From NCBI GenBank assembly GCA_905178155.1, contig CAJINV010000002.1, forward strand, positions 12,285,621 through 12,349,620: a stretch of DNA of 64,000 nucleotides, in the 5' to 3' direction. How positions within the stretch are numbered: the stretch's first letter is position 1; the number at the start of each line of letters is the position of its first letter. The position numbers were made by a program, and so were the translations under genes. The notes under the pieces were generated by a model that made no database searches, had not been told where the DNA came from, and worked only from the letters and a program-made list of their open reading frames with translations. Below, piece by piece: positions 7,197-64,000 of the stretch. This stretch comes from Amoebophrya sp. A120 (lineage: Eukaryota > Protista > Dinoflagellata).

Positions 7197-9725
7197 CTAC
7201 CTAGAGCCAGAAGTGACTGTTGATGAAAGGTTCGCTTTCACTCGGTTGCGCAACTGCAGCTCCTCCGCCAACTCACGCAGCTGCCTCTCCCGGTCGTTTC
7301 GCGTGCCTAGCATCGACTCTGTGTGTCCGGGGACGGGCCCCGCACGGTAAATCAGATCAAAACCGCCGACCCGGGTGATCTGATCGTGGTAGTCCAGCGC
7401 GTTGCCATTTTCGTCTACCTGCGCCAAGTACTTCTCCAGATCCAGAATAGTCAGCACGTCGTCCAGTGTGGCGAACTTCATTTCGTAGTCCGCCTTCGTG
7501 TTGGCGGTCAAGGACGGGCTGGCGTTCACCTCAATCAAGGTGGGGTTAAAGTGCGAATCGATCATGATATCGTAGCCGTACATTTCGAAGCACTTGCGGT
7601 CTGCAATCATCACCCGCTGCACGGCCAGCAGACTGTAGATGATGATTTCCTCGAAACGATTGAAGAGGTCGATGGTGCGCTCACGGCCGATTTTGGAGAT
7701 CAAGTACTGCTTCATCCGCGGGATTTCCCACTTGCCGCCGGTGCGCTGGTAGGTGTTGTCCTTGGAGAAGAGGTTTTTCTGCACCGCCACGTTGGTCAGG
7801 TGCGAGGACAGCTTGGTCGGGTCCCGCACTGTGTCGACCGAGTATCGGGTCAGGGAAAACCGCGCGAACCCTTCTCGACTCAGCCACACGGTGAGCGGCT
7901 GGTAGGAGGTTACTAGTGCATAGATGCGCAAGTCAAACTTCCGCCCGCCGATCAGCAGCGGATTCTCGATGTACTTTTGCACGATGTAGGATTCCGCCGG
8001 CCCCTCGTCGGGGTCGAAATCGTTGCCACCCGCGCCCGCGCCGCCGTAGCCGCCATCGCCCCCGCCGCCGGCGCCGCCCCCGGTCGCGGGCTTCCAGTTC
8101 GCCAACTGGCTCAGCTTGGTGACCATGAAGATGCCAGTGCCCTGACTCCGGCCGACGGGCTTCATAATCCACACCTGCTTCCCGCACCGCCGAAACTCTT
8201 CGACGAACATGCTGTATTCCTGAGGCAGGAGAAACGTGATGGGTATCATCTCCTCGTACTTTCGGGCCGTTTCCAGTGACTGCGCGCTACCTTCCTTTTC
8301 CAACGCACGCTTGTGCCGCTTCACGTTCTTTGCTAAGAGGTCCTTGCGGGTCAGCTCGTAGTGGTTGCGAAAATGGTTCACGCGCTGCCAGGGCTCCAGG
8401 TGCAGCTTTTCCAGCTCCCCGTGAATCCAGTCCTTGTCTGCCCAGTGGATGTGCCAATCCTGCTTCAAGTGCTTCGTGCTCACCGCGCTGGTACCCGCAG
8501 GAGCAGCCACTGCACCTCCGCCAGCACTCGCGGATGTTGACGTGCCTGTCGCTCCTGTAACCGCAGAGCCACCACCGCTGGCAGTACTCGCAGGACCTCC
8601 CAGCTGTCTGGCACTTCCGGGCGGAGACGTCGTCGGGGGTGTGCTCGAAGAAGCAAGGAAAGAAATCGGTTGACCGCCCATACCAGATGCGCCGCTAGTA
8701 CCAGGTCGCGCAGATACAGATGAACCTCCTCCCTTCGTTGCGGCAGTAGGTGTTGTACCCGTTGTACTGCAGCTGGTGGCAACTACCCCCGGAATGCTGT
8801 CATTAGTCGTTGACGCAGACGCACCGGCACCAGATCCTATAGCAACGCCCCCAGAAGTGGACATTGTGGTTGTTGACGAAGCCGATTGCCCCGCTCTCCC
8901 GGTTGCACTCCCGCGGCGAGCGACGTTTGAACTCGACGCAGCAGCACCACCTCCTCCCGTTCCTCCGCCTTCCGTGCCGGCCGCGGCCGACGCAGACGAA
9001 ATCACGGACGCGCCGCTATCCTGAGTAAAAACGTACCCACACCAGAGTCAAGATGGGGAATCGGCTAGACAAATCCACAAGTTTTGGCTGTTTTGCATGA
9101 CAAATTTGGATTCGTAGTGTAGTGCTGTTTGAGCTAGCTCAGCAGCATGACAGATCTAGCATATCATGCTGATTGGAGCATGACAAATTGCAAAACACGA
9201 CTAGAAAACGCTTCTCATGGGGCTCCGCATGAGAAACATTTTCAGCATGCAGATTTGCATGACAACTATGGTGTGGGTACGTTTTTACTCAGGATAACCG
9301 CTGCGCGGGGTCCGCGGCGACGGCAGGTCATCGACGCCCCATTCCTTCCACCCCCGGCTCTTGAAAACGTCATTATGGAGAGAAAAAAGTTTGTCACAGT
9401 CATGTCACTAAGTTGCAGATTTTGCATTACAAATTTTTTTAGCATCACAGCTTCTCCTTGTATAATTGCAGAAACACTAGGGAAATCCCTTATGAAGTGT
9501 GGCTGTGATGCATTTTTACGCATGACAGACAATTTTGTATTGCAAAAACGCCCATTAGTGATCGTGACGAACTTTTTTCTTTTGATAGTCATAGATGGTG
9601 TTGTAGTGCGAGCTTCCCTCCCCCGTAACCGCGTCCGTGACGCGATGCAACTTGGCGCAACGAAATTTGATCTGTTGCCACGGCGCCGGATCCCGTTTAA
9701 TGATGCGGCGAAAATGCTCGGACAT
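7197..9725 (-). CDS. TTLL9: Tubulin polyglutamylase TTLL9-like (TTL family), 3 exons split by two introners
   Basis: Motifs IKFR...NTIYDVFKSRGW (restored by introner removal), HFRNHYELTRK, WIMKPVGRSQG, KFDLRIY, HLTNVAVQK, FEMYGYD and EVNASPS. Confidence 0.85.
9017..9296. mobile_element. Introner family C (280 bp)
   Basis: TIR tatcctgagtaaaaacgtacccacacca / tggtgtgggtacgtttttactcaggata. Flanks gccgc and accgc (4/5 match). Removal gives PRTPRSGASVIS. Confidence 0.93.
9374..9587. mobile_element. Introner family D (214 bp)
   Basis: TIR tatggagagaaaaaagtttgtcac / gtgacgaacttttttcttttgata. Direct repeat gtcat at 9369-9373 and 9588-9592. Removal gives NTIYDVFKSRGW. Confidence 0.92.
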
Positions 9726-40215: not shown

Positions 40216-42860
40216 CTACAGAAAGGCGACCCCGAGCGCGCTAGACGATTCGGGAGAAGCGCCCTGTTGCTCGCTTCCAGCCAGCGGTTTTCCGAAGATG
40301 TCCAGGGATTCCTTCTGCAATTTCAAAACCGCGTTGGCTGCTTCTCGTGCTTGCTTGGCAAAAAGATCGGCTCGCTGGGTATACTCTTCCGCACGAGCAT
40401 ATGCTCTTCGCGCCTTTTCCAGGTCCATATCGGCACGATCGAGAATGAGCTTCGCTGGCCGCGGGTCGTCCAGGGGGTCGTACTCTGTTCATTTGTGCAA
40501 GAACAACGGTTTCAAACTCAAACGTAAGTATGAAGAGAGACACCACAGCACATCAAATTCAGCCCTTAGCAGCGCGTATCTTGTAGTTATGGTGTGCAAG
40601 TTTCAGGATACTGTGCAGACTATTTTTTGGCGGTGAATGACCAAAAGCGCGGGAAGTCGCGTAGCTAGTGTGACATTCAAAATCGCTCATAGGCAACATC
40701 CTTTCTCGTCATACTATCTTTCTGAAACAAGAAATAGCAATACTCTCTGCGCCAATGACTCCCATGACTCGCCCGTTTATCGGGTATTTTTTCCGCATGA
40801 AAATCCAATCTCGGTCCTCGGCCGTGATCGGATCCTTCTGCGCCGGGATGAAGATGTCCATGGGGTATTTGTCCACTTCCGTGATACGCAGCAAACCAAC
40901 GGCGGCCTTGATAAGCTGCATCATCAGCGTTGCCGCCGCGGGCGTGAGCTCGCTGAGGAACCACATAAAAAAGTCCCAGATCTCGCTGAAGGCCTTGAAC
41001 AGCATCTCCAGAAGTTGGAACGGGTTTGGGAGATTGTCGAGAAACACCTTCAGTATCTTAAAGGTGGCTTTTACCATGGCAATCAGCTTCGGGACCAGGG
41101 CCAACAGCTCGCCAATTTTCTTGATCACCACCTATCCCACAGAAAATCACCCTGCTCACCCAAAACTTGTATTATGATGCGAACAGGCGCTGGTGCAAAA
41201 AAAAATTCGGCTGCAGTACCTCATGCAAAGCAATGCAACGGAAGCGGAACGTCGCTTCCGCGCTACTACTTCACTTCTTTGCCCTGTTTGCAACATCACA
41301 ATATCCGTCTATCATCATGAAGGTGAAGGTGCAGACTTCACTGAGGATATTGCCTGTGCGGTTTTGATACAGGAGCCGACCAGTTTAAAGAACTGGGTTA
41401 TCGATAGGTCGTATGTCATCGCGGGCTTCGTGCCCAACATCAGTTTCCAGGGCTGGTAGATGAACGGCCGCACGTTCTCGAGCTTGGAAAGCTCCGCGGG
41501 TTTCAGGATGTGATGGTCGAAACGTGGTCCCGTTGGGTCAAAAATGGACTTCAGGTTCTTGATCTGGTCCAAAAAGTTCGAGGTGTCGGTCAGCATCCCG
41601 CTCCCGGCGCCCGCCAGGCCGCTCAAGGAATCGGCACCACCGTGTATGCCGTTCGTGATCGCGCTGCCCATGTCCACGCCCAGCGACTCGCCCGCGACCA
41701 TCCCCACGGTGGACGCAGACGCCCCGCCCGTCGCCCCGGCAGCGTATCAACTGTAAAAATGTCTGGGTCTGGAAGAATTCATGTTTGTCATGCTTGTCTG
41801 GCATGACTCTTAACTCTGTCATGCACGTTACCCAAGAGCTCCGTTTTTCTGTGATGCAGAGGCGCAGTTTGTCATGCAGAATAGGCAACACCTAGAAGCT
41901 CAGAAACTTGTCATGCTGAGCCAGCATTTGTAGCCTCATCATGAGACGCCACCCAGCATCACAAGTTCCCAGACCCAGACATTTTTACTTTTGATACAGC
42001 GAGAGTGAAGCCGACGAGGGGGGCCAGGTTCTTCGCACCCCCCTATCGAAAGGAAAAATCCCCCCTCCCCATATCAAACCGGAAATTTGTGATGCTGATT
42101 TGTGACCACAAATCAGCTTTGTCTTGCAGTATAGGAGTGCAGGCAGATACAAAGCCTGGAAGGGGCTGGCTAGAGGTGGGCGCCCAGCATGGCAGACGTC
42201 TGCCCTGTTGGTGCAGCAGCATGACAAATCGCCTGCGCAAAGCGGCGAAAGCTCTGGCTTTGCTCTCTTGCAAGACAAACCTGATTTGTGACCACAAATC
42301 AGCAACACAAATTTTCAAAAGGATGCCTTTTCGATATGGGGAGGGGGGATTTTTCCTTTTGATACCCCCGCAGCGTCCTTCATCGGCAGTTGCTTCTGTA
42401 AGGCCTGGCCGGCTTGCTGCAGCGGGGCGGGCAGGGCGGCCATCACGTCCGGACCAAAGCCGTCTTCCATCACGGAGGGCGGCGAAACGGAAAAATTTTG
42501 CGGCTTCAGCAAAGACATCGGGTCAAAGCCTTTGAAAAAGTCCATGGCCTCACTCAGCACAAAACTCGTCGTGGAGAGTCGCTGTGGTCGTTGCCTGGTG
42601 GTGGTTATTCTACCCGCAAGAGGTGGGGCCGGAAAAGAGGAGGACGAACTCGAGCTCGACGGGCATTGTCGTGTGGCATGACGAACACTTGTCGCACGCT
42701 TGTGCGAAATTGATGGGGTCGTGGGAGAGGAAAAGAAGCTCGAGAACAACGATGTCGCAGACGAGCCACCGTCGTCGCAGCTGGTTGTATCCTCGCCGTA
42801 CAAATGATCTGGAACGCCACTACCGCCTGGCCCCGAGATCAGAAACCGCGAGAGCACCAT
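40216..42860 (-). CDS. Hypothetical protein with amphipathic/hydrophobic helices, multi-exon
   Basis: ORFs 42315-42860, micro-exon 41997-42043 and 41315-41707 join in frame after removing two introners. Further ORFs at 40709-41131 and 40216-40428 are probably downstream exons. Confidence 0.6.
41745..41996. mobile_element. Introner family A variant (252 bp)
   Basis: Family A TIR. Direct repeat cagcg at 41740-41744 and 41997-42001. In-frame removal gives FTLAAGATGG. Confidence 0.94.
42044..42364. mobile_element. Introner family E (321 bp)
   Basis: About 35-bp TIR tatcgaaaggaaaaatcccccctccccatatc. Direct repeat ccccc. In-frame removal gives KDAAGGAKNL. Confidence 0.93.
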
Positions 42861-45374: not shown

Positions 45375-48300
45375 TTAGGATTGGAAGTACTGGTAGTCGA
45401 GGATGAAGCTCCAGAACTTGTAGTTTCCGGTGGGTAGGGGCTGAAAGACCGGGATTTCAACCAACCCGAAGCGGGTTTTCATCGCATCCACACCGTCCGT
45501 GCCCAGAGCGACGAAGGCCGTTCCGGCTCCGTAGATGATCTGAATGGCAGCGATGACCAGCAGGACCCAGTGAAAGATGCGTTCGCCAAGCGATCGCTCC
45601 GTCTTGTAGACGACGGCGTAAGCGAGGAGCGGGTAGGGAACCTTCACATTTATGTATTTTTACGGTAAACTCGTGTCTAGTATGGGCGGTATCGACAACA
45701 AGTTCCATCTGTAGAACTATTTTCATATTGATCAAGCTGCAATCCAATGGCGAGTACATCACACAATTATTATGAAGAACTGCGAGTCACCTGCCCAATA
45801 TGCAACCAAACCTAGCACGAACTTCGCGAAAAGTTAGAAGAGTACCTAGCTCTGATTCGCTATTTTTGGTCCTATGTAGTAAACGCAAAAACTCAGAAAA
45901 AGTACCTGAGTCAAAACACAGCCGAATGCCGCGACGAGATCGACGAGCTGGCCGAAAAAGGGAACGACCCACACGATCAGGGCGGCCATCCAGATGATTA
46001 GGGTACGGCAGACCTTCGATTTTCCCGGGGGCACGTCCTCCACGGTTTTTACCTTTGCGAACTTCATTTCCAGGTGCAGCAGCGTGCTGTTCATGATCAG
46101 GGCGAAGGAAATGAACACGTTAACCACGATCATCAGTGCGACCGTGATCCCCTGCCAGGAGGCGGCGTTTCTGTGGTTCGCCGGGTTCACAAAGTCGTGT
46201 CGCATGGAGTCTACGATACTGCTGTCAATCGCGGAGCCGTAGGTGAGGTAGCCGCAGATGCCGACCACGAAGTAGATGAACGCAATGGTGAAGGAGGACA
46301 TGAGGATGGAGCTGACAATGGTGCTGGGTTCGACCATGCTGGTGTACAGCGCGGGGATCATCATGACGAAGGTGAAACTGAAGAACACTTTGTTGACGGG
46401 GGCGACGATCCAGGACAGACTGGCGATGGTGGAGGACCAGCCAGAAATATTTTCGGTTCGCGAAGCGGGGAAAACCAGTTGGTTGGTGATCGGGAGATCC
46501 AGGAGAATTCCGTCCGCACTCTCGTTGACGACGCCCGCGGTCGTTGACGCGCTCGAGAAGTATGCGGGATACTGTTGTCGCCAGCTTGCTGTGTCATCCG
46601 CGGTGTAGGCCTCCGCGCACAGAACCTTTCTCGGCTTTTGGGTGGCTTGTGACTTGCTGTCGAGGTCCGGAACGATGTAGGTGAAGTGCAGTGTTTCGAA
46701 CGGTGCGGTCGTGGCGTCGGACTTGTATTCCAGCGTGCATCGGTTGTTGGCGCGGTCGACCCCGATGGCGGTCGGACCTGGAACGATGTCCTGCGGCAGC
46801 CGTTTTGCCGCGCTGCTCATGATCTGCAGCGCGTCCCGCTTGCCGTTCGCCGTGGACAGTGCGCGTTCCCGGGTCACCTCCTGCCAGGACAGGGTGTCGC
46901 GCTCGTCCGCCGACAGGGAGTCGTGAAAGTGTCGCAGCTTCTCCGTCAGGCCGGCCACCTTGATCGTCAGCAGCTCCACGTCAGCGGGCAATGCGTCAGC
47001 CCTGCTCGCGGCGGCGCACAACTCCTGATATTTGGCGCGGTCAGATTCCGCCTTCTTCCGGTCCTCATCACTGACAGTGGTTGTGTCGGTGTTTTTCGGG
47101 AGGGCGGGGTACCGCCAGTAATACAACGCGTAGTTGTCCATGCGCGTCAGCCAGCACCCATCAACGCCCTCCTGCGCCGCGCACACGAGCTCATTTTCTG
47201 GCGTTGCCGGATTGAGGCAGGCCTGCTCGATCTCCTTCAGCAGGGTGTAATCCGCGGCGACGGTGCCGTCTGGCCGCGTGTACTGGTAGGAAAGCTTGTT
47301 GCGCACAAATTCGGGCGGGGAAACCTCCTGACTTAAGTCCAGCGCACTCACGACTGGCAGCTTCTGCTTGGTGTCTGAAACTGCCACACGTTGCATGCGC
47401 CACTCGACCGGGCGGTCTTGCATAATCAGGTAGGAATTAAACTCGTTGCCGTTCGCTTTCGCGTTCCTCTCGCAGAAGTCCGCGTCCACGTCCAGCGTTT
47501 CGGGGATCGCGCCTGTAGTAGAGGTCAAAATAAAGTTGTGCGATGCTTGACCTTGCTCCTAACTGCAAAAGCCGTTTTATATATAAACCATCTTTACTAG
47601 AGAGCGAGAAACACAAACCAAAGTCGAAATTCGACAACTACAAAGTAGAAATACAGAAACTCCTCGACAACAAGAACAACAGAAAAATAATCGCTTGAAT
47701 ACTTCCATCCGTCGGCTTCTGAACGGCGACGCGTAAATATTCAAGAAAACCCTGCCACTCCGTTCTTCCGCTGTCCGCTTTTCGTGAGGTGTACCAGCTA
47801 AATTCACAGGCCTTCTCGCCATTCGTCTCAAAGTAGTAGGAGTCTCGCTCGTCCGGAAATGTGTCCCAGCGGAAAACCTCGCCGGCAATCCCGGTGCCAG
47901 AGAGCTCCACGACGGCGTCCTTCAGCAGGGTTATCCTTCTCGCCGACACGCTGGGCATGGTTATGGCGTTCTCAAACGTTACATTCTCAACTGTTACATG
48001 AATTTGTCGTGCAAAACTACCTTGAGCCGGTAGATGATCAAGCTGCTTCGCATGACAAATCTCCGAAGGGCTAAACAGCACCTAAATCGGTGCCAAATCT
48101 GTGATGCGAAAGCAGCAATTTTTGCACCTTTGACTGTTGCGGCTCTTGCATCGCAAATTCATATAACAGTTGAGAATGTAACGTTTGAGAACGCCATAAT
48201 GGTGTCGGGCGGGTTCTGCGTCAAGTCCCGGTGATACCACTGTCCGGAAATCCAGGCGACTGGGGTGTAAAACGCGGCCTCCGTGGCGGGGAATTTGTGC

Positions 48301-50575
48301 TCCTCTACGACGGTGCCATCCGCGTTACCGCCGGTCGAAAACGCCAAGGTCGCTTCGCCCCGCACGCCCTTTCCGGTGTCGCTCATTTTCACCAGTTCCA
48401 CCTTTCCGCTGTCCGTGAGCAGGCAGCTTTGGCCGTATTCACAGCTTCGGTAGGGGGCCCACTTCGGGAAGTCGAGGTACTCGTTGTTCACGTCGAAGGG
48501 CTGGGCTTTCATGTCCAGGACAAATTTCCCGCCCGCGGGCTGGTTTGCATCCTGGCTTACGGTTTGCAGTTTCCTGCCACTACTGATGTCCGGGTTCTCG
48601 CTGACGCCACGCGCACTGTCGGTACCCACCTCAGTGAGGCCCGTTCGTCCAAAGTAGTCGTTCACCTCGCCTTGCTGCGGACCAGCGAACAGCTTCAACA
48701 AGGAAGCAGACTCGGTGTAGGCAGGACCGTTGAAAGCGACCACTGTGAAAAGGAGTTAGTGTTTGGTGTATATTTATTTTTCCGGCAAATGCTAAACATG
48801 TCTTGTCTATAAGCAGCAAGGTCTCAGAACGCAGGAGAATCTGAATCAGGAACAGGAAGAGAGCGTGATTATTGAAAGTGAAAGTATACCGTACGTAAGC
48901 AAAATCATATTTTCGTGGCACAAAAGAAAACAATACTGGCATCATCTCCGGTCTTAGCTGGATTCAGGATGGAGTTGAGCGCAACCACCAAAATGACCAC
49001 GATGCAGCTGAGCCATGCTACAAAGGACACCCGCGCGAGCACGGACACGTCCCTCAACCAGCACAGGAAGGTAAGAATCAGGGCCACCGTCACAATCCAA
49101 CCGTTCTTCGTCAGAGCCGGAATGTAGTCGAACAGAATCACGAAGTTCATGGCCAGCAGCAGCATGAACACCGTTCCGACCAGAATAATGAAGGTATGGT
49201 AGAACTTGGAGTAGACTGTGATGCAAATTTATTTCGTAACATTTTATGAATTTATGTGTTTGAGGAAAAGCATAGCTGTACTTGTAGTACAACAATATCG
49301 GTACAAAAATGTATGAGCCTCAGCGTCCTTGCAGTAGTCAAAGTCAAATTTCGAACGTGAATGGAGATGAAAATCATAAAAGTTCAGTACCAGCCGCCCA
49401 GCACTTTCCGAACAGGACCTTTGTTAAAGATCCCATCTGCGACATATCCTCTTGATCGACATTCAGGTCTTCAATACGCTGCATCACTTGTGCCTTTTTT
49501 ATTGCCGCCACGATGGATGCAGCAGTGCAGCTGTCATATTTTTTCATTTGCATTTTATCAAGTTACTGATGTAATTTGATCGGCATTTGCAAAACGTTCA
49601 ACATCATTAAGTTTCTGCTGAAGATGGACATCACGAGGCCACGCAAAGACGAAGACTTTCTTGTTAGAGCGCTCCGAGGTGAAGCAGTAGGTGCAAAAAA
49701 ACATGTTCAAGTTCATCATCAAAAGAAAAAGATTTGCAGTTCCAGCACTGCAGCAAAAGTTGCAAATACAAGGCCAGGATGAAGATCGCTGGGACGTAAC
49801 CCGTGGACTGGAAAACGCTTGGAAGGGTAACGATACCGGCCCCGATGTATCAAATGTAAAAATGTCTGGGTCTGGAAGAATGCAACTTGTGATGCTGCGT
49901 TTCGATGACTAAAAAATTTGTGTTGCATGAGCAGCAAACAGAGTCTAATTTTTACTACGCGGAGAGGGCATTTGTCATGCGGAATGGGCATCAAGAATCC
50001 CTCAAAAAACCTGTGATGCTAGGGCATGCATTACAGGCATCATGGGTCATGAGAAATATGCATGACAAGTGTTGCATTCTTCCAGACCCAGACATTTTTA
50101 CATTTGATACGATGGCCGTTGTGACGATGGAAAAGATGGACTCCCACCAGGTCGTAGTCCTTCCGAATCCCGCGCCTGGGTCGGAAAGGGACCCCCTTGA
50201 TATCATATGCAAAAATGTCTGGGTCTGGAAGAATGCAACTTGTCATGCTATATCTGAAGCATGCAAAAATCTGTGTTGCATGATTACCAAAAGTCGTCCA
50301 GTTTTGGACAAGTCGGGAGGGAGTTTCTCATGCAGGATAGGCATGAGAGAGATCGCACAGAATCTGTCATGCTAGGTCCTGCATTCCAGGCTTCATGGGT
50401 CATGGAAAAGCTGCATGACAAATCGCGCATTCTTCCAGACCCAGACACTTTTACATTTGATACTTGACCTTGAGGAACCATCGCTGTCGCTCTCCGCATG
50501 GGACTGCAGAATGCTTTTGTGGCTTTTATACGAAATCCGGCTCAGCCCCGAGGGCGGGATCAGCGGTGCCGTTTC
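45375..50575 (-). CDS. Amino acid/auxin permease (Aa_trans, SLC36/38-like) with a large loop insertion; first exon not located
   Basis: TM1 motif SIFSIVTTAIGAGIVTLP (restored by introner removal), LCWLRDVSVLARVS, FSFTFVMMIP...M..P, VGICGYLTYG and VPFFGQLVDLVAAF. N-terminal ETAPLI fits an acidic dileucine sorting motif. Confidence 0.85.
47962..48198. mobile_element. Introner family B (237 bp)
   Basis: 45-bp TIR with 1 mismatch (tatggcgttctcaaacgttacattctcaactgtta[c/t]atgaatttg). Direct repeat atggt. In-frame removal gives PPDTMPSVS. Confidence 0.96.
49848..50109. mobile_element. Introner family A (262 bp)
   Basis: TIR tatcaaatgtaaaaatgtctgggtctggaagaatgcaac. Direct repeat cgatg. Splits the TAIGAG motif. 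Confidence 0.96.
50201..50462. mobile_element. Introner family A (262 bp)
   Basis: Family A TIR. Direct repeat cttga at 50196-50200 and 50463-50467. In-frame removal gives GSSRSRGSLS. Confidence 0.95.
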
Positions 50576-51359: not shown

Positions 51360-51929
51360 TCAATGGCCGATCTGAATTATGAGCATGCCTCGACAGCATG
51401 GTTTCTGCCCAACACTACTTTGGCCTATCGTGCAAGACGCGCTCTGTTTGATGTGATCAGAACCGCAACAACGGCTTCTAGAATATTGCGATATATTGGT
51501 ATTGCGTTGTGTTTGAACCGAATGCAGCGAATCATCTTCCGTTCCATCAAGAATCATAGATGGCAACAGTATTTTTGCAATCTTGCGGTGGTTCTTTTGC
51601 GCCTCTCATCCTTCTCCCTCAAGTCTGGGGAGGTAGTTTAAGCTCATGACCACACAACCTGCAGAGAGCAGGAAGCTACATGAAACCCACTGGTTGGTTC
51701 CCGTGGCCGCAACGAAGCTTTCCCAGCCCGGGGGCGCGGCCTGTGCCTCTTTGCTTTCCATCGTCGCCAAAAACAGTATGAAGGAGAGCACCATCATCCC
51801 GGCGCCGCTAAGAAAAATGTACGCGCTGCGGCCGGCTCGGAAAAAGGCAAGAAGTCGCTGGACGGTGTTCTGTCTGTACTGGATCAGATATATCACGAAC
51901 TTCCGGAAATATTCTCGGAATACCGACAT
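51360..51929 (-). CDS. Possible small TM protein or exon(s), hypothetical
   Basis: ORF 51606-51929 has a hydrophobic helix (AYIFLSGAGMMVLSFILFLA). Boundaries are uncertain. Confidence 0.35.
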
Positions 51930-54462
51930 GATGGTTGGAGATTTTAAGACTTTTAGTAAATGGCTCTCGCTATCAAGTAGAAGTCAAGGTTTAAGCTTTA
52001 CAAGGGAAAGCGGCTAATTGGCGGGCGATTCGAACTTTTCCAAAACTTTTCATTTGACTTTTCAGGATTTCAGGGCATTGAAAACGATTTGATAAAGCGA
52101 GTCAGAACGAAAAAACGCAGTGAAGATACTCCAAGCGACAGAACAGGGGCGCTTGCGAGGTCTTGGGCGCCGACGCCTCCTCTTGTCCCGCGGGTGATCG
52201 GCGAATCCCGAGCGACCGCCTTTCCACCCGCCGAAGCGTGCGCGCGCGCCGGGTACCCGCCGACCGCACGCAGCCAACGGCTGCCGGCGCGGGCGCCCTA
52301 AAGAAAAAGGCCATGACCGCCCATCGCACCCACCCGCCCCCCAGGCCCGGAAGGCCTACCCGGGAACTGACTAGGAGGAGGGCTACCGACACAGGGAAGG
52401 GGGCCGGTCCGCCAGACCCTAAACCCGACGCAACCGGGCACCCGGCAACGCGCGCCCTCGCCAAAAAACGCGCGCGCCCAAGCCTCACAAACACCCGGAA
52501 TCGCGGCGCCAGCCCGCGCCTCCTGCCGCCGGCGGGCCGCCACCGCGAAACGGCCCGACCCTGGCAGCTTTCTTAATGCAAAGCAACCACCGGCCAAAAG
52601 CTGCCGGCGGTGTGTGCTGCTGTTTCGCGCTTTTCCACATGAGGAAGATCAAAGCGCGCCAGCCTGTTGGGCTTTGTTTGACTTCAACGAACCGCCGGCG
52701 CCGGGTTCTATCGGTCGCCGGCTGATAATACTAACGACACAGGAGGGCCGACAAAGAAAAGGGGCACCCCGCTGAGGCGCCGGCCGCGTGGGGTTCTGGC
52801 GATTTGGGGCGCGCAAAAGAGCGCCCCAAAAAACTCGCGGCAAATCAGAAAAGCGAAGCCGCACGACAGGGCCGGGGCTCCGTTCGGAGCATTTGGCCGG
52901 CCGCGAAAGCGGCCGCCGCCTTTTCGCCGGTTTCTATGCGGCGGAAGCTTTGCAAAGGGTGCCGGCGCGCAAAGAAAAAACACAGAAAAGCAAAAGCGCG
53001 CCAAGCGCGCGAGGCCAATCCCCATGCCATGGGACCGGTTTGCCTTCGGTTTCAGGGCGCTCCACCGCGGCGCCCGGATCGGCCCCATACCGCCAGGGCT
53101 AGCTTTCGGACAGGGGTTCTGAAAATTTGGCAAAGAACTACCATGCTTTCCAAAAGACGGCCAAGCCACGCGGCATGGCCATACCAAAAGCGGCACGGGG
53201 GGCCCAGAAAAAAGACACAGTGGCTGGCCAGGGCAACGGCCGGCGGGCGGGCAAGGCAGCCAGCGGCACCGACCTCACCACCTCCGCCACGGAGGCTATA
53301 TTTGGCACGCTGGGCACACGCAGCAGCGGCTTACCGTCCGACAGCCCCACACGTAGCAAGCAAACAGGCCCCGAGGGTAACTAAGCCCCCACGACGTCCC
53401 CTCCCCTACGTCGCACGCAGGGGCGCAGTTCCGCCCGTGCACCAACCACATCGCCCGGCGCCCCAACATGGCTCGCCCCGCCCGAAACGGTGTCGAGCGT
53501 GCCATGCGGTCCGACGTCGGACCGCACGGTATGCTTGTCGGAAAAGCAAAACAGCAAACGCACAGGCCCCGGCTGACCAGATAGAGACGAAACAGATCGC
53601 CCAATCCCGGCCCACAGGGTGGGGCGCAGGGCGAGCGAAGGGCGAGACGAACGACGGGTGGCAATCGGGCCGCCGGCACGTAGGAAGTAGACCCGCGGCG
53701 GCGCCGCCCGGTATTCCAGGCGCGCAGGCAGGCCGGCGGGGCCCAACATGCAGGCGCGCCCCCATATCAGAGGGCGGGAGGCCCCCAGACAGGCCGGCCC
53801 CGGCCGGCTGGCGCCTGGCGGATGCGGCGGAATCGCTTCGGCGCCCCAATAACACGCCTCCCCCGCCCGGGCTCAGCAGTGCGCAGGGAGGCGCCACGCC
53901 CGCGCGGCTGTTGCCGGCCGGCACACTGTGGCCCCGGTCTAGGTCGGTCGCGGGCGGGGGGGGCGAAGGACTGGCGCGGCCGGGCCGGGTGTTCCTTCCG
54001 TCTATGGGTTTGGGCAAACCGACGCCAACCCCAGCGGCGCCCGGGCCCCCAAGAGCCCGCCGGCCGCCGCAAGTGTGGAGTACGCGGAGCGCATGCCCCG
54101 CACGCGCCCCGAACGGCGCAACGCGCCAACCAAGTTCAGGGGGTCGGTAGCAACCGCCGAAGCCCGGGCGCCCTCTCTTGGTTCGCAGCAAGCTACACGC
54201 GCACCGGCGCCCCCGGGGCGTGAATCCGCTGCCCGGTGGCGCATGCGACAACGTAGCGCCGGCCGCCCGCCGGGGCGGGGCCGGCCGCTTGCCTGGCTAC
54301 GTGCGCAATAACCGCAGGCGTGCCTGCCGGGGGGCTGTGCCTGCCTCTTTTCGGGCGCAAGGCAGCCGCCCGAGGGCGGCCCGGCTGGCGGGCAGGAACA
54401 AAGGGCAGGCGCCGGGCGGCGAAACTTTTCCGCCCCTCTACCGAAAACTCTGCCGGAAACTT

Positions 54463-54680
54463 TGCCGAGAACTTGCCGAAAACTTTCCCCCGAACTTTCC
54501 CGAAAAGTCGGCGAAAGCCTTCCGCGAAACCTTCCCGAAAAATTCTCCCGTTGAAAAGTCGACCAAAAGTTACAGACCGGGAGTTGAAAAGTCAGCCAAA
54601 AGTTTTCGAGTCCGAAAATGATCCCGAAGCGGGAAAGTTTCGGGAAAGTTCGGGGGAAAGTTTTCGGCAAGTTTTCGGCA
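54463..54680. repeat. 43-bp inverted repeat built from ~11-bp ccgaaaacttt-like units
   Basis: 54463-54505 versus the reverse complement of 54638-54680 has 1 mismatch. Confidence 0.9.
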
Positions 54681-56207
54681 CTCAAGCAGAAGACTTCGCC
54701 GCGCCCTCAAAAGCCGAAAAGCCTGAAGGCTTGCGCATCCGCCAGGCTTGCGAAGAATCCTGCTGCCCCCCCCCTTTTCTACATGGCTGAGGCGGTCTCC
54801 CCGAAAATGGGGACAGAGCCTCCTGGGCGAACTTATTGCGCGCGCCGGCGGGGCAGCATGTGAGTGGCGCCCCGCGCGCGCCCCTGCTGCGCCGGCGCCC
54901 TTTCTACTCGCGAAAAGCCGGCCGCGCAAGGCCGCCGCGACCGAGGCGGAGCACTCGGGAGCGGCGGCATGGTCTCGGCGCTTTGTATGTAAGTGCGGGG
55001 GGGCGGCGAATATGAAAGAGAAAGGGGCAGGCCGGACGGCCTCTAGCTAGCGCCCAAAGAAAGGCGCCGAGCCAAAACGTGAGGCGCGGGCAGCTCCACC
55101 GAAGCGTAGCGCGCCACGCCATGCGGCCCGAACGTGCGAGGCCGGGCCGCCCGCGCGGCGTGCTGCGCGCCTACTTCAATGCGCCAAATATGGCCGCCGG
55201 GGCGGAGATAATGAGGCCGGCGCCGCTTCTTTGCCCGCCGACCTTGGCCCACACCACTTTTTTGCTTTTTCTGGGCCCGCCGTGCCGGGGTGGGTAAGGT
55301 TATGCCGCACGGTATGGCGGCCGGTTGGGGAAAATGGCAGACGTTGGGCAACTTGCCAAAACGCCTTCCCGAAAGCCAACCCCGATGCTATCGGGCCGGC
55401 CCGGGCACCGCGGGGGGCGCCCAAAAACCGAGGGAAAAGCGGGCCCATAGAATGCGGGCTGGCTTCGCGCGCTTGGCGCGTTTCTTCTTTTTTGCGTTGT
55501 GTGTTATTTTTCGCGCCCGCGCCTTTTGCAAAGCTAGCGCCCCCCCGCTGAGAACCCGGCAAAAGGGCGGCCGCTTTCGATTCGCGACCGGTTTCGCGGC
55601 CCTGCCATACTTACGGCTTCGCTGTTCTGGCTTCGGGCGGGTTTTTTGGGGCGCCCTTTTGGGCGCCCCAAGTCGCGCGCCAGAATCCCACGCGGCCGGC
55701 GCCTGAGAAGGGTGCCACGTTTGCCGACCCCCCTACGTCATTTTTTCAGACAGTCTTTCCACCGGCGGCCGACTGAGCCCACCGGCGACTGCATTCATTG
55801 AAGACAAAACCAAACAGGCGGGCGCGCTTGGGTTTTTTTCATCTTCAACATGCGAAAAAATGCGAGCCAACGCCCCAAGCCCCCGGCCGTTTTTGGCGGT
55901 TCTTGTCAGGAAAGCTGCAGAGATAGAGCCGGCTCACGGGGTCGCTGCGGTACATCTTACAAGAGAAGGCAAACCACCCAGGCACACAGGCTCGTGCTGG
56001 AGGGCAACATACCAGAGGGGCCACGGGGCCCCGCCCGCCGGCTCGCTTGTGGGGCGGGCCACCCGGGGGAGTTGCGTTATCCATTTCCTGAACCAAAGAA
56101 CACCCCGCCGGGGAAGCCCACCCAACCGGGGGGGGTCGGCCCCACATCGCGATGCATGCCGCACGCACGGACGGCCTGGCGCGAGAGGCCGGCCCACCAT
56201 CGCGCGC

Positions 56208-56243
56208 CATACCATGCGGTCCGACGTCGGACCGCATGGTATG
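56208..56243. repeat. Perfect 36-bp palindrome (related copy at 53502-53529)
   Basis: cataccatgcggtccgac|gtcggaccgcatggtatg. Confidence 0.95.
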
Positions 56244-57698
56244 CTGCCTCTTTGCTTCTCTCGTTCAAGCAGGCGAAGCAGAATAGACGGGCAACCGAAA
56301 TAGACAGGTGGCGCCACCACAGCGCGCCACAGACCCACATCACGCGCCGGCCATCGGGGTGGCCCCCCGACCGCAGGCCCTTGACACTTCTGCCACCGCT
56401 AGCGAGACGAGCGGAGGAGCCGCCTCTGCCCGTTGGTTGCAAAAGGGGGGCGCCTTTGGCGCACGCTTCGGCCGCGTCGCGTAACCGCGGAAAGGCGGGC
56501 AGGAAACAGACGGCCGGGGCGCGACGGCCTCTATTTTGTAAGAATGGGCAAGCGGCGGGCCAGAATGTAGGGGGCCGAAGGTACGTCGGACAGCGCGCGG
56601 CCGGCGTGCCATCCAAGACACCGCGGCGGGGCGGCGCGCCCATTCGGGCCCTGGCAGTGGCAGCCAGTGCCATTGCTTATTTAAAAGGCGCTCAGGGCGA
56701 AGAGGGCCGACGCGCCCCGGCATTTCCGAAGCGCGAGGCGGCGATCAACATCCGGGCGAATACTGAAAGGCCAAAGGCCAGCGCCCGCGCACCACTTCAA
56801 AAGGTGCACAAAATGCGCACAGGGCCCCACAGCGCTCGCGAATAATCGCGAACAACCGACCACGGAGGCGCTGCCCGTCCGATGCGCGGCGGGTGGCATT
56901 TCCCGCAGCCTGCTTGGAGGCGTCGATCAAAATGGCAGGCAGCTGGCGGGCACACGCCGCGGCGAAGAGGTGCCGCCCTTTCATGCTCTGCCACTCCCAA
57001 AGTGCGGACTTACCAGCAAAAGGCAGCACGGTCCAAACAATTGTCGCAAAGCATGGATTGCCGACGATCAAAATAGCGACTTTGCCAAAAGTCAAAGTAA
57101 AAGTTTTGGAAAAGTCGCTATCCCGTTTCAATTACCCGTTTTCCCTTGTAAAAGCTTGTTGCCTGTAATACTTCACCTCCCTCCAGTAGCAGCGTCTGAA
57201 GTCTTTACTTGTACTGGGCAATACCAGACAAGAACAAATGGGCAAATTTTGATTACGACCACTGTAGCTTCACACTGGTCGACGCGAAGTCATTGCAAGC
57301 GCTCGTCCTCTCCTGAACCAGCCTAATCAACTTGCACCTCCTTTCTTTCAGATGATCATGATTCAAATCCAGTAGTGCGTCGTTTAAATCGCGCTAATTC
57401 AAAGATACAAGCGCACGGCACGCGTTTGAAGCATCATGAACAACAACTTCAATTTCAATTGCTGTCACCGTCGTGCGGCATTAATGATGGGCGTTTCAGG
57501 CGAAAATGCGACAGGGCGAGTCATTGTCTCCTTACCCGTAGTTTAGTCGGTTTTTTTTTCCGCTTTGCGCCTGTCGTGCACTGGAATTGCTCCCAGGAAC
57601 TCTGACTCTGTAGGGATCGCCCCAGGTAGCGGAAAGAACAAACCAAACGAAACTTACAGTCAATCACAGGGATCACAGGAAAGCAGAAGCTTTTGAGT

Positions 57699-60619
57699 TC
57701 ATGTGTCTTTGTTATCCTGCTCCACCAATAGCGCCAGAATATCGTCCCATCTCTCGTCGTATCCGGCCTGTTGAAAGTGCGCGATGTACCGCGATCGGAT
57801 CAAGCGATCCACTGCTGCGGGCTGCTCCAGGACATCTTTGAAAACGCGTCTCTCGATGATCCGCATCACGTCGGCAAGGCACAGCGTGTTTCCGGTTAGC
57901 AGCTGCAAGGAGTCCAACACGCGGAGTATCCTGAGTAAAAACGTACCCACGCCCGAGTTGTAATGCAGATTTGCAAAGACAGGAAGACTTGTAATGCGCA
58001 TCCCCATGAGAGCCATTTCCAGTCGTGTTTTGGAATTTGTGATGCTGTGAACAGGATGAGCAGACGAATCTGTGATGCGGCTGCACTTGCTAACCTGCAC
58101 TACACTGCATAGTGCAACTTGTCATGCGTGACTCCCAAAACTCCTAGGTTTGTGTTGCAAAATCCCCATCTTGACTATGGGGTGGGGACGTTTTTATACA
58201 GGATACGGAGAATGTCCACGTGCGGCGTTACCGGCTTCGGACCTCTGCCTTGGGCTGGTCTTGCTATCCTGTGCAAAAGTATCGTAACGTACTCGTATGG
58301 AAATCATGCATTACAAAATCCTTTGTTAAGGTAAATCAGCATTACAAATTTTATTTCTCATGCTGAGGAAATTTGTAATGCATTTATACGAGTACGATAC
58401 TTTTGCAGTTCATACTTGCGCCCGCAACACCATGCGTTTTTGATCGCGAATCCACGACTCGTTGTCCCCCTCCTGGCGAGCTGCAAGAACCTGCAACACC
58501 CCCAGATGTGGATCCTGCGGAATTACTCTGGGATGAATGTTGCTTGATTGCATTGCACAAGATCCAACTCTGTCCGGAGACAGACAACAGTTCCTGCTTT
58601 CCACGGGCTGCAAATGCGTCAAACGTTTTCTGATACTTCTTGGACACAGAAGAGTCATTGGTCTGCCCAGCGTGAGCAGGGCTCTGCAGGCTTTCCTCAG
58701 TTGTAGTTTCGTTCCGACGGGAAGTGGTTGGAGACATGGAAGAACCGCAAGAAGCCCCCACGATCTCCTGACTGCGGGCCCTTTGCTCGCGTTCCGCAAG
58801 CTCCTGCGACATGCCGCGAGTGTACAACAGGGCCGTCGAGTTCAGGAGCTTTGCAAGCTCCGCCGCCGGGAAGTTGCTGTGTGGACTGTTGCTCCCGGCG
58901 CACTGACTATCCATCTCCTGCAGCACACGATTTGCGAACACCGCCAGGTCGTGCAACGGAAAAGCTATTTCCCATCGACTGAAGACAACCAAAACCGCCG
59001 TCAAGTCCTTCAGCTCGAACAGATGCAGCGAGCTCAGAGAGTACTTGCGAATCTTCGCGTATAGGGAGCGGAGGAGAGAAAGCTTCTGCTCTACCTTCGT
59101 GCTTGAAGTGGAAGGATTTTGTGCGTTGCAGCTGACCACTGCAACATGTTGACCAGTGTCTACAACTTTGCGAAGCCCGGTTTCGTCAACATTGCTCCTA
59201 GAAGTGCTGCCCGTCTGACTAATGTTGTCTGGACTAGGCGAGGAAGAGGTTGATGTCGTCTGCGCAGTGTTCGCGAGCATTTGCGTTTGCTCCAGTCTCT
59301 GCGCTACGGCCCGATAGTACTCCAGCAGCATGCCGAAGGCGTATGCTACCGTTGAGAGCTCAGCGGGGGTGTTGAACAGAAGTTTCTCGCCGGCGCTGCT
59401 TACGCAATACCGTACGAATTGTTCCTCGTCCATGCCGCACCGTGCGAACGAGTGGATCACGCGGGCAATTTCAAGTGGCGTTGCCTGTTTTAGGTTTTAG
59501 CGTGTACCAGAAGTAGTCGGCTCGAGTGACGAAGTTTTGGTTATGGTTCCCCTTCATCACTCCAATCGGAATATATTAAAAAAAAACCGTACTCTATACA
59601 ATTGCAAAGACGTATAGGAGTTGTATGTCGACAAAAGCAAAGCATCAAGCTTAAACTCGTGACGACCCAACAACATCACAAACGGGTTCGGCTGTTTTAC
59701 CTCGCCGATTGTGAACTTGGCGTGGTAGGCAATGCTCTCAAAGAGTCTCTTGTCCTGCACTACAGCGGCGTCCGCAAAAGCTTTCGCGATGACGGACAGG
59801 TCGCGGATGTGAAACGGCTCCACTTGCATGCGGGTTTGCAAATGCGTGGAAAGCCTTTTCCACAGTTCGTCGTCATTCAGTTCAAGCTTTGTAATTGCGT
59901 TAATGAACATGGTTTGCTCCGTGGTCTGTTGCAAGTCCGGCACCTGTGATGTTTTTTGTGTTGAGGGTTGATGCAGCAGCAGTGCAGGCAGTCTTGGCTG
60001 AGTCTCAATTTTGGCCACTACAAGTACCAACCAGCGTAGCTGGCCCACATAGGAAGCATAATCAACAGTGGGTCATATAATCAGTATGATCTTCTTCATG
60101 TTCTATTATACCCGTATTTTCAACTCCTTAACCATGACCAGCCGCTCGGATTCTGTCAGTTTCAGGCCGCATTTTCCGAACGCCGATAGCATCATGGCCA
60201 GATAGGTCGCATTGAAGTACGCGATCTTCTCGAAGAAGAGCTTGCGAATCTCGCCCTCGGGCCCGACAATCATCGGCAAATACCGTTTATCAAATGCAAA
60301 AATGTCTGGGTCTGGAAAAGTGTAAACTTGTCATGCAGGTTTTTCATGACCCATGAGGTCTGGAATGCGGGACCCAGCATGACAGAGTCTGCGAGGTCTC
60401 TGCCATGCCTATCCTGCATGAGAAACTCCCTCCAAACTTGGTCTAAAGTGGACAGCTTTTGGCACTCATGCAACACAGATTTCTGCATCGTTCGGATTTA
60501 GCATGACAAGTTGCAATCTTCCAGACCCAGACACTTTTGCAATCCATACCGTTGCCGAAGCGGAACCTGCCGCGAGGCGGACGACGAGGAAGATCCGCCT
60601 CCACCGCTCTGGGATTGTC
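57699..60619 (-). CDS. Helical-repeat protein (HPR/OPR/FASTK-like, probable organellar RNA binding); 5' exon(s) not located
   Basis: Repeats such as FNATYLAMMLSAFGKCG, FHIRDLSVIAKAFADA, TPLEIARVIHSFARCG, TPAELSTVAYAFG and FELKDLTAVLVVFSRW. Three introners are removed in frame. Confidence 0.65.
57927..58205. mobile_element. Introner family C (279 bp), inverted relative to the 9017 copy
   Basis: TIR tatcctgagtaaaaacgtaccc / gggacgtttttatacaggata. Direct repeat cggag. Removal gives VDILRVLDSL. Confidence 0.94.
58265..58414. mobile_element. Introner family F (150 bp), inverted relative to the 15731 copy
   Basis: tatcctgtgcaaaagtatcgta / tacgatacttttgcagttcata. Direct repeat cttgc. Removal gives VAGARPAQG. 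Confidence 0.92.
60288..60548. mobile_element. Introner family A (261 bp)
   Basis: Family A TIR. Direct repeat ccgtt at 60283-60287 and 60549-60553. Reverse-complement homolog of 50201-50462. Removal gives PLRQRYLPM. Confidence 0.94.
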
Positions 60620-62095
60620 CTACAGTTAGAGCTTTAACACTCGTTAGCATGAGAAGTGGTGAGTTTGTAGTGAATTTTGCATGACAAATAGCAGAGGAGA
60701 CTGCCGGGACATTGTCCCTTTTGCTCTTCTGGGAAGTGGGTTCTGCACACCGCAGAAGTTAGTTGTCCAGGCTTATGCGGCGGGCAGCTGGACATGGCCT
60801 GGGCGTCATTCTTTGGCCATGTGAGTTTCGTCTTCCTGTGCTTGCAAAAGAGCAAGCACTGCAGCAGCCGCGGCAAACACGCCAAAAACAAGAGCCGCGA
60901 AGCACATAAGCGCAGTTTTTTTAGGCAAGATGAAGGCGCGGAAGCAAAGGCGAAAGGACCCGGCCGAGAGCTTTGACGCGTCTATCCGGCAGGCGCGTGA
61001 ACTCTCCAGGCCTTTTCGGCAGAATATAGATTAATCCTCCAAAAAATGCATCTCTACCGGCATCATTGCAAAACATAGCATACCACATCCCAATACTGCA
61101 ATCTCCGGGCGTCATTCTGAACGACGAAAACCATCCTCCGAGCGCAGTTTCGGCTCGTTGCGGCTGGTTGATCCTCGAAACCGGAACTGTGAGGCCACGT
61201 CACCGATCGAGAGCCATGGTTGGCCGTGGCGTCGCGCGGGGTCGTCTGGAACTGCGGAGCTGGAGATGTGGTAGCGATGGCCCACATGGTTCGGCTTCAA
61301 ACGTCGGCGGGAGGAATCTGATATAAGCTTGCTGGCGGGATAGCTGTGATGGTGGATTCGTGGAAGCTCTCCGAATTGGAGCTGATGAGCAGGGGCCCCG
61401 CGAAGCGTCTGCTACAGAACCAGGCGGATTGAGCAACGGAAGGTAGTTGATTTTAGTACTTGTCATGCAGTACTTCTAGCGATTAGGCTTTGGCAGGTCT
61501 TGAAAAAACGACGCCCGCGCGAACGGCTCTGAATCCATGTAGTCGAGTGGTATAATTCCCCCTTGTCATTTTGCACGTTAGCTTCTTCAATTTCCAGGCC
61601 CGTAGCTGTTTCCCCTATGTCATCTTCCTCTGCCAAAACTGAAACTAAGATACGCCACCCCGCTACCAGCCGCGGAACCGCCCCTGGCGTGGGTCTGTAG
61701 AGTGGGGCCCTTGGGAGCGGCCCGGGCAAGAAGGTTTGGTCCATCAGTTCGGCGTGTTACTTGGCGGCGCTGCTTTGGTGAATGCCCACTCGGTGGGACC
61801 GCGTTGCAAGCCGCGACACGTCTTCCCCGGAGCAACTCGACAAAGTCTGCTGCGCGAAGGCTTCCCTACGAATAGGCAGAGCAAGCTTGGAGCTGTTTCG
61901 TTTCAATGACAGCAGTGGCGGGCTATGTCCCGGTGAGCAATGGTGGAAAATCGGCAGACCCTTAGCGCCGAAATTAGTAGCACAGCCTAGATGTGTTAGA
62001 TTCAGAATTTGAAAGAATAAGCGGCTGCATTTGTACAGAGCCGCCCGAGTGGTTTTATTTTTTCCCATGCACAGGTCGAGCCTCGTGAAAGTAAT

Positions 62096-63929
62096 TATGG
62101 ATGGACACTTGCCAGTTGCGGAACCATCCAGAGTTCGATACTGAGCGGAAAATAATTGCGCTCAGTATCGAAAATGCGCGTATTCGCAAGGCCACAGAGA
62201 CCGAAATCGGGTCGGGCCGATGGGTGTGACGCGTGGCCCGCAACGAACGAAGTCGCACGACCAAATCCCACACCCCCTGGCCCGCCCCAGCAGCCAAGGA
62301 AATTTGTAGTGCTGCCGACCCATTGCACCTACCCAAGTAATCGGCCGTGGGCGACAAGAGCTTGGCGCGCATTCCCTCCGCTGCAACGAAGCTAGCAGGT
62401 GGAGCCAGGACAGACGCACCACGGGCGCCGCGCGCGCCGCCGTTACAAAACCAAAGTCAAGGATAGCTTTGCTGCGGCACGGTCCGCGTCACAAGCTGCG
62501 GCGCCGTGAGTCAGTGCGACGGCAAGCAAGCAATTCCTCGGGCGCGGCTCCATCGATGCCGGGTGGGGCGGGCGCGGGCGGTCTGCGCTGCTCGGGCATT
62601 AAGGGGAGCAGGCAGAGGGCAGTCTGGCAGGCCGGCCAGACCTCACGGTGGCCGGCCGCGACGGACAGCCACGCCCTGGCGGCGGCAACGCAATTGACCA
62701 ACGCAGACGCTTTTTTTTGGCGCCGCGGGGCTGCAGCAGGGGGCGGGGGACCTCGGGGCAGAGCGGTCGCAACATTGCACAGACGGCCCATGCCGCATGC
62801 GGCATAGAGGGGCGCGACCCCTTCCTGGCCAAGCGGAGCGCGCAAATTTCCGCCGGGGCCTGCGCAAAAAAGGTAGCAGCGGTGGCTGCGAAGCCCACAC
62901 ATTCGCAGGCGTGAGGCCAAGAAAAACGGAGGCGCCACTCGGCATGCCCCACCGGCACATTTTGCGATCAGAGCGAAGAAACAGCTGCTGTGCGGGTGTT
63001 TCTTCCGCTGATCGGAAGAAACACCTGCACAGCGCCTGTTTCTTCGCTCCGATCGCAAAATATCGGCGGTGTCACGCGTTTCCGAGCGATCGACTTTTGG
63101 CTTGCGCGAACGCTGCGACGCGTTCTGCGCGGGCCGGAGTCGGGCGTGGAGGTGCGGCGCTTTTCCCCAGTGCGCGCGCGAGGGAACGGTGGGTCACGGG
63201 CGAAAAATATCAGCACATGTATACAATAAACGAGTCGCGACGCTGCCTCGGCCCGACAGGCCACCTAGAGTGCGCGCCTGCGCATGCACGCAACAACAAT
63301 AGGCAGCAAAATGGGCCCAAAGGGGGGCGGCGCCGAAGCTCACGCACTGAGTTGTGCCAGCACACGCCCCAGGCAGAACTAGTCGCAGAGACCCGAATCG
63401 CCGCGAGTGCGCTTTGGGCGATGCGTGGGTGGGACGGGGGGGGCGGGTCCAAGCAAGGGTGCGGCTGCGGCGCCCGGCCGGGTATAACCCGATGGCGGAC
63501 CCGGCCAGATCGCGCCAGCTCGCACACTCGCGCGCGGGCGAGACCTTTTGCAAAAGTTGCGTCCCCCGAGCTGGCGAAGCAGGCACGACGGGAATAACAC
63601 ACGCTGCGGGGCTGACGGCTCTGTTGCGGGGCTTCAAGTGGCGCATGAGCATGCGGCGCATCTGCTAGCCACCACCCAGGAAATATCTTACACAGAGATA
63701 CTGCGCGGGGCCGCGCGGCTAGGGCCTTTTTCCGGGCTAGGCGCGCCTTACCACAGTTACGTTGCAGTTGCGCGGGCTCTGGGAGAGCGCAGGCGAAGCG
63801 CCCGCCATAGCTACAAAACCCTTGAAAGTGGCTGCTTTTTTACGACTGCCCGCAAGCGCCTTTTGCGATTGATTTTGCGCTCAGTAGCGAACTCCCGATG
63901 GTTCCGCAACTGCATTGTGTCCGTGCATA
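62096..63929. mobile_element. 1.83-kb GC-rich non-autonomous TIR transposon with an 8-bp target-site duplication (hAT-like TSD length)
   Basis: About 60-bp imperfect TIR tatg.a.ggacac....cagttgcggaaccatc..gagttcg.tactgagcg.aaaat. Perfect duplication aaagtaat at 62088-62095 and 63930-63937. Confidence 0.9.
62959..63061. repeat. Hairpin with 49-bp arms and a 5-nt loop
   Basis: Arms 62959-63007 and 63013-63061 have 4 mismatches. Loop ctgat. Confidence 0.92.
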
Positions 63930-64000
63930 AAAGTAATTCTGTATTGAAGGCCAGTAAGACGGCGTCGTCGTTCGTTTTTGTTTCCAAAGAAGATGAAAAT

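Follow-up and report, generated by a model that had tools for sequence, protein, structure and literature searches.

The window analysed here comprises 64,000 nucleotides of Amoebophrya sp. A120 (Dinoflagellata; GenBank assembly GCA_905178155.1, contig CAJINV010000002.1, positions 12,285,621 to 12,349,620) and contains two large GC-rich elements bounded by terminal inverted repeats (TIRs), called E1 and E2 in the following (Table 1). Both carry a long inverted repeat at their midpoint, which we tentatively read as a third binding site for a putative end-recognising protein. The preliminary description of this DNA had reported the two elements with their midpoint repeats, and all four inverted repeats are where it had placed them; an internal inverted pair in E1, the intron behaviour of E1, the likeness between centre and TIR and the option of a tandem-dimer junction are new here.

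Table 1. Features of E1, E2 and their surroundings (positions within the window)
Feature	Position	Strand	Remarks
Host gene of E1, conserved 107-amino-acid (aa) myzozoan protein of unknown function	51606..51929	-	homologues in A25, Perkinsus and dinoflagellates
E1 left target-site duplication (TSD), AAGCT	51993..51997		copy at 57152-57156; skip length in transcript contigs = element + one 5-bp copy
E1, 5,154-bp GC-rich TIR element	51998..57151		TTA...TAA ends; missing from spliced-transcript contigs
E1 left TIR	51998..52064	+	three RACTTT repeats, 11-12 bp apart, at 52033, 52044 and 52056
E1 module A	52538..53354	+	75% identical to inverted A'; axis ~54241, off-centre
E1 palindrome P	53496..53535		copy P' 33/34 identical
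E1 central array	54421..54680		degenerate 11-12-bp units with TIR motif; motif orientation flips near 54501, face-to-face
E1 module A'	55132..55944	-	inverted copy of A
E1 palindrome P'	56208..56245		second copy of P
E1 right TIR	57073..57151	-	small inner hairpin at 57073-57121
E2 left duplication, AAAGTAAT	62088..62095		copy at 63930-63937; alternative reading 6 bp with TTA...TAA ends
E2, 1,834-bp GC-rich TIR element	62096..63929		TAT...ATA ends; TIRs and flanking duplication
E2 left TIR	62096..62172	+	inner 20-bp motif twice, as hairpin 62134-62172
E2 central hairpin	62959..63061		49-bp arms, 5-nt loop, ~-60 kcal/mol as single-stranded DNA
E2 right TIR	63864..63929	-	inner motif 63872-63891
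Short introners (11, several TIR families)	1852-2113, 2149-2387, 9017-9296, 41740-41999, 42049-42359, 47962-48198, 49847-50110, 50199-50463, 57927-58205, 58265-58414, 60288-60548

Two unrelated elements with inverted repeats at their midpoints

The paired ends match at 52 of 65 positions in E1 (51998-52062 and 57087-57151) and at 48 of 58 in E2 (62096-62153 and 63872-63929), and from left to right the boundaries read AAGCT, TTA...TAA, AAGCT in the former and AAAGTAAT, TAT...ATA, AAAGTAAT in the latter. One TIR of each element has an extra hairpin of the centre's motif at its inner edge. The interiors have a GC content of 63-73%, compared with ~51% in the host DNA and 40-55% at the ends and centres of the elements. 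Among the 24 longest (at least 150 aa) of the 48 open reading frames (ORFs) of E1 and E2 there was no Pfam match above the cut-off and no transposase, and the longest ORF of each element was within the range of shuffled sequences (23 and 57 of 200 shuffles). Rfam gave seven sub-threshold matches to microRNA hairpins and no family. With no transposase ORF found among these, both are likely non-autonomous TIR DNA transposons. The hAT superfamily is characterised by an 8-bp TSD, a short TIR and a hAT transposase; the duplication of E2 can be read as 8 bp, although a 6-bp reading exists too and there is no transposase to classify it by. As had been claimed, the elements are unrelated: their TIRs and centres differ, and cross tests between them detected nothing in common (1995 and 394 of 2000 shuffles were as good).

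E1 contains in addition an 816-bp inverted pair, A and A' (817 and 813 bp), whose axis lies ~333 bp from the element centre. Their alignment has 24 indels with a net length difference of 4 bp and a z of 8-19 as an inverted pair; neither a duplication nor a TIR was found at their edges. Each half of E1 also holds one copy of a 36-40-bp palindrome (P and P'), nearly identical despite diverged surroundings.

The central arms of E1 (54463-54505 and 54638-54680) match at 42 of 43 positions about an axis at 54571.5, 3.0 bp from the element midpoint at 54574.5. Those of E2 (62959-63007 and 63013-63061) match at 45 of 49 positions about an axis at 63010, 2.5 bp from the midpoint at 63012.5. The midpoint hairpins of the preliminary description were thus confirmed in their placement in both elements; structurally, the term suits E2, with its short loop, better than E1, where the arms enclose a 132-nt loop and lie inside a degenerate tandem array. 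In each element the central repeat was the top local hairpin (score 40 versus 18 for the next in E1, 37 versus 10 in E2) and beat all shuffles (maximum 14 in 50 for E1, 13 in 100 for E2), and the central folds are predicted to be stable (z -9 as RNA, z -13 as DNA). If positions were uniform, placement this central would have a probability of 0.0014 in E1 and 0.0039 in E2, values computed post hoc for a pattern seen in both of the two large elements in the window. A comparable central hairpin was present in none of the 11 short introners after end trimming (best scores 6-17, the 17 reflecting extended terminal arms). The predicted minimum fold of the E2 centre is the simple hairpin; each arm also holds a 9-bp stem of its own (62975-63005 and 63015-63045), which makes a T-shaped alternative fold possible.

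Next to their placement, the central repeats resemble the TIRs of the element in which they lie. All 12 interior RACTTT/AAAGTY sites of E1 fall inside 54423-54662, in an array with the same 11-12-bp period as the TIR repeats, and a 240-bp segment at the centre has 68 six-mers in common with the TIRs, compared with at most 30 in any other of 3,155 segments across the 64 kb. The outer 19 bp of each central arm of E2 resemble a 20-mer of the inner TIR, the two copies standing back-to-back at 32-33 bp from the axis, while at the true ends the distance is 38 bp. One arm matched the inner motif of the right TIR at 18 of 20 positions, which was equalled in 2 of 2000 shuffles (8 of 2000 for the other arm). 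TIR tips were not recognisable at either centre; since in the E2 comparison the outer 33-38 bp are unlike them (389-846 of 1000 shuffles were as good), only the inner motif would have been kept there. By these comparisons the centre appears to reuse the element's own inner-TIR motif, strongly so in E1 and moderately in E2.

Apparent removal of E1 from transcripts

Transcript contigs came from two runs of one sample, whose status as RNA was guessed and is not on record. As they skip CT..AC introns at seven of the 15 joints shown (there are nine further joints in addition), they stem from spliced minus-strand transcripts. Contigs from both runs join 51992 to 57152 at depths of 35 and 48, leaving out 5,159 nt, and contig depth over 52963-54915 is nil. 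The skip has no GT-AG reading in any of seven registers, and four short introners in E1's stretch are removed from the contigs in like manner. Apparently, E1 behaves as a giant introner that is removed precisely from transcripts with non-canonical ends. The junction lies ~63 nt upstream of the ATG of the 107-aa gene, which in the simplest reading makes E1 an intron in the 5' leader of this gene; an E1-free allele, or a skip of reverse transcription across the TIR stem, is a possible alternative. Raw RNA reads from two more runs numbered 78 and 4, nearly all continuing into unlike sequence, and were uninformative. Two other runs, which may be the source of the assembly, contain 0.87 and 0.82 of the words of 55000-64000. 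The 107-aa protein has 25 homologues, among them one in A25 with 77% identity over the full length and others in Perkinsus and dinoflagellates; it has a hydrophobic stretch and matched no Pfam family above the cut-off.

Short stretches of A and A' match transcript contigs at low depth, possibly from other copies or from retained intron. Around E2, the region 61426-64000 is without any contig or read in four runs, so E2 was not placed in a transcript, and a search restricted to longer proteins gave no homologue of the ORF next to it. Between the two elements, a 656-aa frame opens on the minus strand at ~57700-60760 once three introners and two introns of the canonical type are taken out as the transcript joints indicate; two of its exon ORFs had no Pfam match. 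Both contig sets also show a 57-nt joint that goes back on itself (60564-60620), at the 5' end of the upstream gene.

The behaviour of E1 raises the question of whether the central repeats act at the RNA level, with the hairpin and A/A' helping to fold a multi-kb non-canonical intron whose TIRs pair for splicing. The precise absence of E1 from spliced contigs without any GT-AG register and the stable central folds speak for this, and end pairing is the route proposed for Amoebophrya introners in the available text of Farhat et al. (2021, PMC7789003). However, folding of this kind would need neither a midpoint position nor reuse of the TIR motif, and E2 was not placed in a transcript. We hold an RNA-level function to be unlikely.

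Origin of the central repeats

The preliminary description had proposed that both elements arose as head-to-head foldbacks whose arms decayed except at the ends and the centre. Centring would then follow by construction, the E2 hairpin does extend weakly to ~105 bp, and supplement file 8 of Gozashti et al. (2025, PMC12130899) lists short introner families of A120 that are palindromic throughout. However, homology on the central axis was found in none of the 11 interior windows of E1 and none of the seven of E2. The AT skew keeps its sign across the centres (E1, +0.40/+0.25 versus +0.20/+0.25; E2, +0.24 versus +0.10; standard errors 0.05-0.09), whereas between A and A', a genuine inverted pair, it changes from +0.24 to -0.12; A/A' itself lies on another axis. 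The missing axis homology and the unchanged sign of the skew speak against a decayed foldback, which in our view is very improbable; the long mirror-image arms about a central axis that distinguish a foldback element are missing from E1 and E2. The suggestion of a hairpin-ended or resolution-site structure likewise failed: a hairpin-ended linear replicon or resolvase dimer predicts identical arms, which were not seen, and no resolvase gene was found among the Pfam-searched ORFs. A DIRS-like internal complementary region was rejected in view of the flanking duplications and the absence of a tyrosine-recombinase ORF.

A neutral relic of a tandem dimer has to be taken more seriously, though we still consider it rather unlikely. 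Two equal copies would have been joined end-to-end, the TIR junction becoming the central palindrome, and the halves would have diverged while quasi-palindrome correction kept the arms alike. The geometry of E2 suits this, with its motif copies back-to-back and nearly as far from the axis as from the true ends. The unchanged sign of the AT skew is what a tandem arrangement predicts, A and A' begin at similar offsets in the two halves of E1, and the flanks of P and P' are weakly similar in direct orientation. Length drift can also be small, as A and A' differ by only 4 bp at 75% identity, and DNA transposons are known to form such dimers (PMC5932611). On the other side, homology in tandem register was found in none of 13 windows of E1 at a shift of 2577, in one of 13 at a shift of 2710 (the P palindrome itself) and in none of 10 windows of E2. 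The motif orientation in E1 is the reverse of that at an end-to-end junction, and the TIR tips are unrecognisable at either centre. With indel drift estimated from A/A', arms as equal as those observed have probabilities of ~0.13 and 0.19, or ~0.025 jointly, even at A/A' divergence, and any old symmetric origin is weakened by this estimate. The dimers described in the available part of PMC5932611 have two TIRs adjoining at the midpoint, which E2 resembles, but they consist of two recognisable copies with intact or deleted TIR junctions including the TSD, whereas the halves of E1 and E2 are non-homologous and E1 has the reversed orientation. Neither element thus shows the homologous halves and the TIR-TSD-TIR junction of a tandem dimer; only the inner-motif geometry of E2 fits, which leaves a very old dimer conceivable. 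E2 also shows a direct similarity off register, between 62360-62470 and 63736-63838 (z 6.4).

The repeats might instead be small, nested or unrelated, and central by chance: E1 could contain a decayed mini-element of its own family, or A/A' could be the TIRs of a nested 3.4-kb element. The face-to-face array of E1 would suit a nested mini-element, the window is rich in small inverted-repeat elements, and the pattern was spotted post hoc. Against this stand the low placement probabilities (0.0014 and 0.0039), the lack of a duplication or TIR at the edges of A/A' and the lack of a TIR tip adjoining the array, which leave chance centring improbable. Assembly artefacts, such as foldback chimeras of long reads, are a last option. 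Yet each arm is short and its match imperfect (92-98%), the flanking sequence is unique, exact duplications flank both elements and contigs join the flanks of E1 exactly, and we give an artefact hardly any credence.

A possible third binding site and its setting

E1 and E2 probably belong with the Amoebophrya introners, as large non-autonomous elements that move by cut and paste. The functional central site that the preliminary description had offered as its other option gains support from the reuse of the inner-TIR motif at the centre; any function is read from sequence. Our preferred interpretation, to which we assign a probability of roughly 0.4, is that the midpoint hairpin may be maintained as a third binding site for a putative end-recognising protein and would aid the pairing of the ends. 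A transposase acting in trans would bind the inner-TIR motif, and the central copies, being without the outer cleavage-end sequence, would be bound and not cut. The bound or extruded central site would then double the element over on itself and let ends meet that lie 1.8-5.2 kb from each other, a help that short introners (<320 bp) would not need. Removal from RNA would likely proceed via TIR pairing, as proposed for short introners, and in E2 the central site may have been born from a dimer junction. This interpretation is favoured by central arms that match at 42 of 43 and 45 of 49 positions while the flanking arms lack homology, by the same layout with different motifs in two unrelated families, and by the fact that E1 is still centred despite its 816-bp inverted pair on another axis.

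Several points weigh against a maintained binding site. It rests on two elements without a second copy of either, and neither encodes a transposase among the Pfam-searched ORFs. Alignment of the whole TIR of E1 to its centre was modest (22 and 80 of 2000 shuffles were as good), and the tandem units of the array are not independent. In E2, the 20-mer was picked after being seen and its match to the left TIR was weak (54 of 2000 shuffles as good); the k-mer test was negative, with 1,422 of 6,355 windows scoring at least equal, and a scan with the whole TIR gave equal or better chance matches elsewhere in the window. The motif orientation differs, the copies facing each other in E1 and standing back-to-back in E2. 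Selection on a flexible loop would not obviously require centring as tight as within 3 bp, and drift from an initially symmetric structure leaves probabilities of ~0.13 and 0.19. Finally, no gyrase-like motor is known to act in this setting. Pattern scans of metagenome and viral contigs for the TIRs of E1 and E2 gave no matches.

Foldback/Galileo-type elements carry repeated transposase-binding motifs inside inverted repeats that are contiguous with their ends, unlike the array described here, which is isolated at the midpoint. The closest parallel to the position of the central site comes from phage Mu, in which the middle position of a strong gyrase site was shown by experiment to be best and the site was proposed to promote end synapsis (available text of PMC10052514). 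A central site between transposon ends whose position is thought to aid synapsis is common to both cases. The Mu site, however, is bound by the gyrase of the host and lies in a prophage that is 38 kb long and supercoiled (PMC10052514), whereas E1 and E2 carry a palindromic copy of their own end motif, belong to a eukaryote and are known from sequence alone; the likeness is an analogy and not membership. If carried further, this analogy would make the large Amoebophrya introners a transposon class comprising two or more unrelated families. At the exact midpoint of its members a cleavage-dead copy of the end-binding motif would fold the element in half and pair its ends, as a eukaryotic counterpart of the Mu central site, and members could also leave the transcript in one piece, as non-canonical introns of 5 kb; we regard this extension as doubtful. 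Nonconventional introns of euglenids resemble E1 in being TIR-paired, TSD-bounded, non-canonical and up to several kb long, but they belong to another lineage, their structure is conserved near the ends, and the available part of PMC11282704 mentions no midpoint site.

Introners were defined in 2021 by inverted repeats of 8-20 nt and a boundary direct repeat of 3-5 nt, and the intron analysis in the available text of that paper covered introns of 40-1,000 bp only (PMC7789003). E1 and E2 have longer TIRs, and their boundary repeats are of 5 bp in E1 and of 8 (or 6) bp, outside that range, in E2. TIR introners of 0.8-1.6 kb are already catalogued for A120 in the accessible part of PMC12130899, among them fam38 (808 bp, TIR ~50, 5-bp TSD, TA/TA ends), fam103 (~1.2 kb) and fam86 (1,619 bp, TIR 84), so size alone extends a known class. 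Like A120 introners, both elements have TIRs, a short flanking direct repeat, TTA/TAT starts and no transposase, and E1 shares with them the precise non-canonical removal from RNA. They differ in the 5.15 kb of E1 and in their GC-rich interiors, compared with 33-50% in short introners, and they hardly contain the TTGTCATGC-type arrays that short introners carry (one in E1, none in E2). Neither the introner passages nor the 58 A120 family rows of PMC12130899 mention a midpoint hairpin in which the TIR motif recurs, and a literature search of incomplete coverage found no description of one in TIR elements. E1 and E2 are a variant of known Amoebophrya introners, with a midpoint end-motif hairpin that we did not find described.

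The window further contains many inverted-repeat elements of 150-310 bp, as described for A120 introners (PMC7789003, available text); exact 5-bp duplications and TAT...ATA ends were present in all five short introners checked. TTGTCATGC/GCATGACAA-type internal arrays are common to short-introner families with different TIRs and are a candidate common site for a host or splicing factor. One ORF in the window, of the tubulin-tyrosine-ligase family, shares 99% identity with a protein from Amoebophrya sp. A120.

The available text of PMC7789003 left as an open question by which means Amoebophrya introners are mobilised, and how their splicing works although no U1 small nuclear RNA was detected. 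An intron of 5.16 kb that lacks canonical splice sites suggests that pairing of the ends is by itself enough to define introns of great length, and the midpoint end motif may serve as DNA bait for the missing mobilising protein. The midpoint site also allows a simple genome-wide test, namely whether the central position is kept among elements of different length. Should centring be under selection, a eukaryotic transposon would follow a geometric rule that was not expected.

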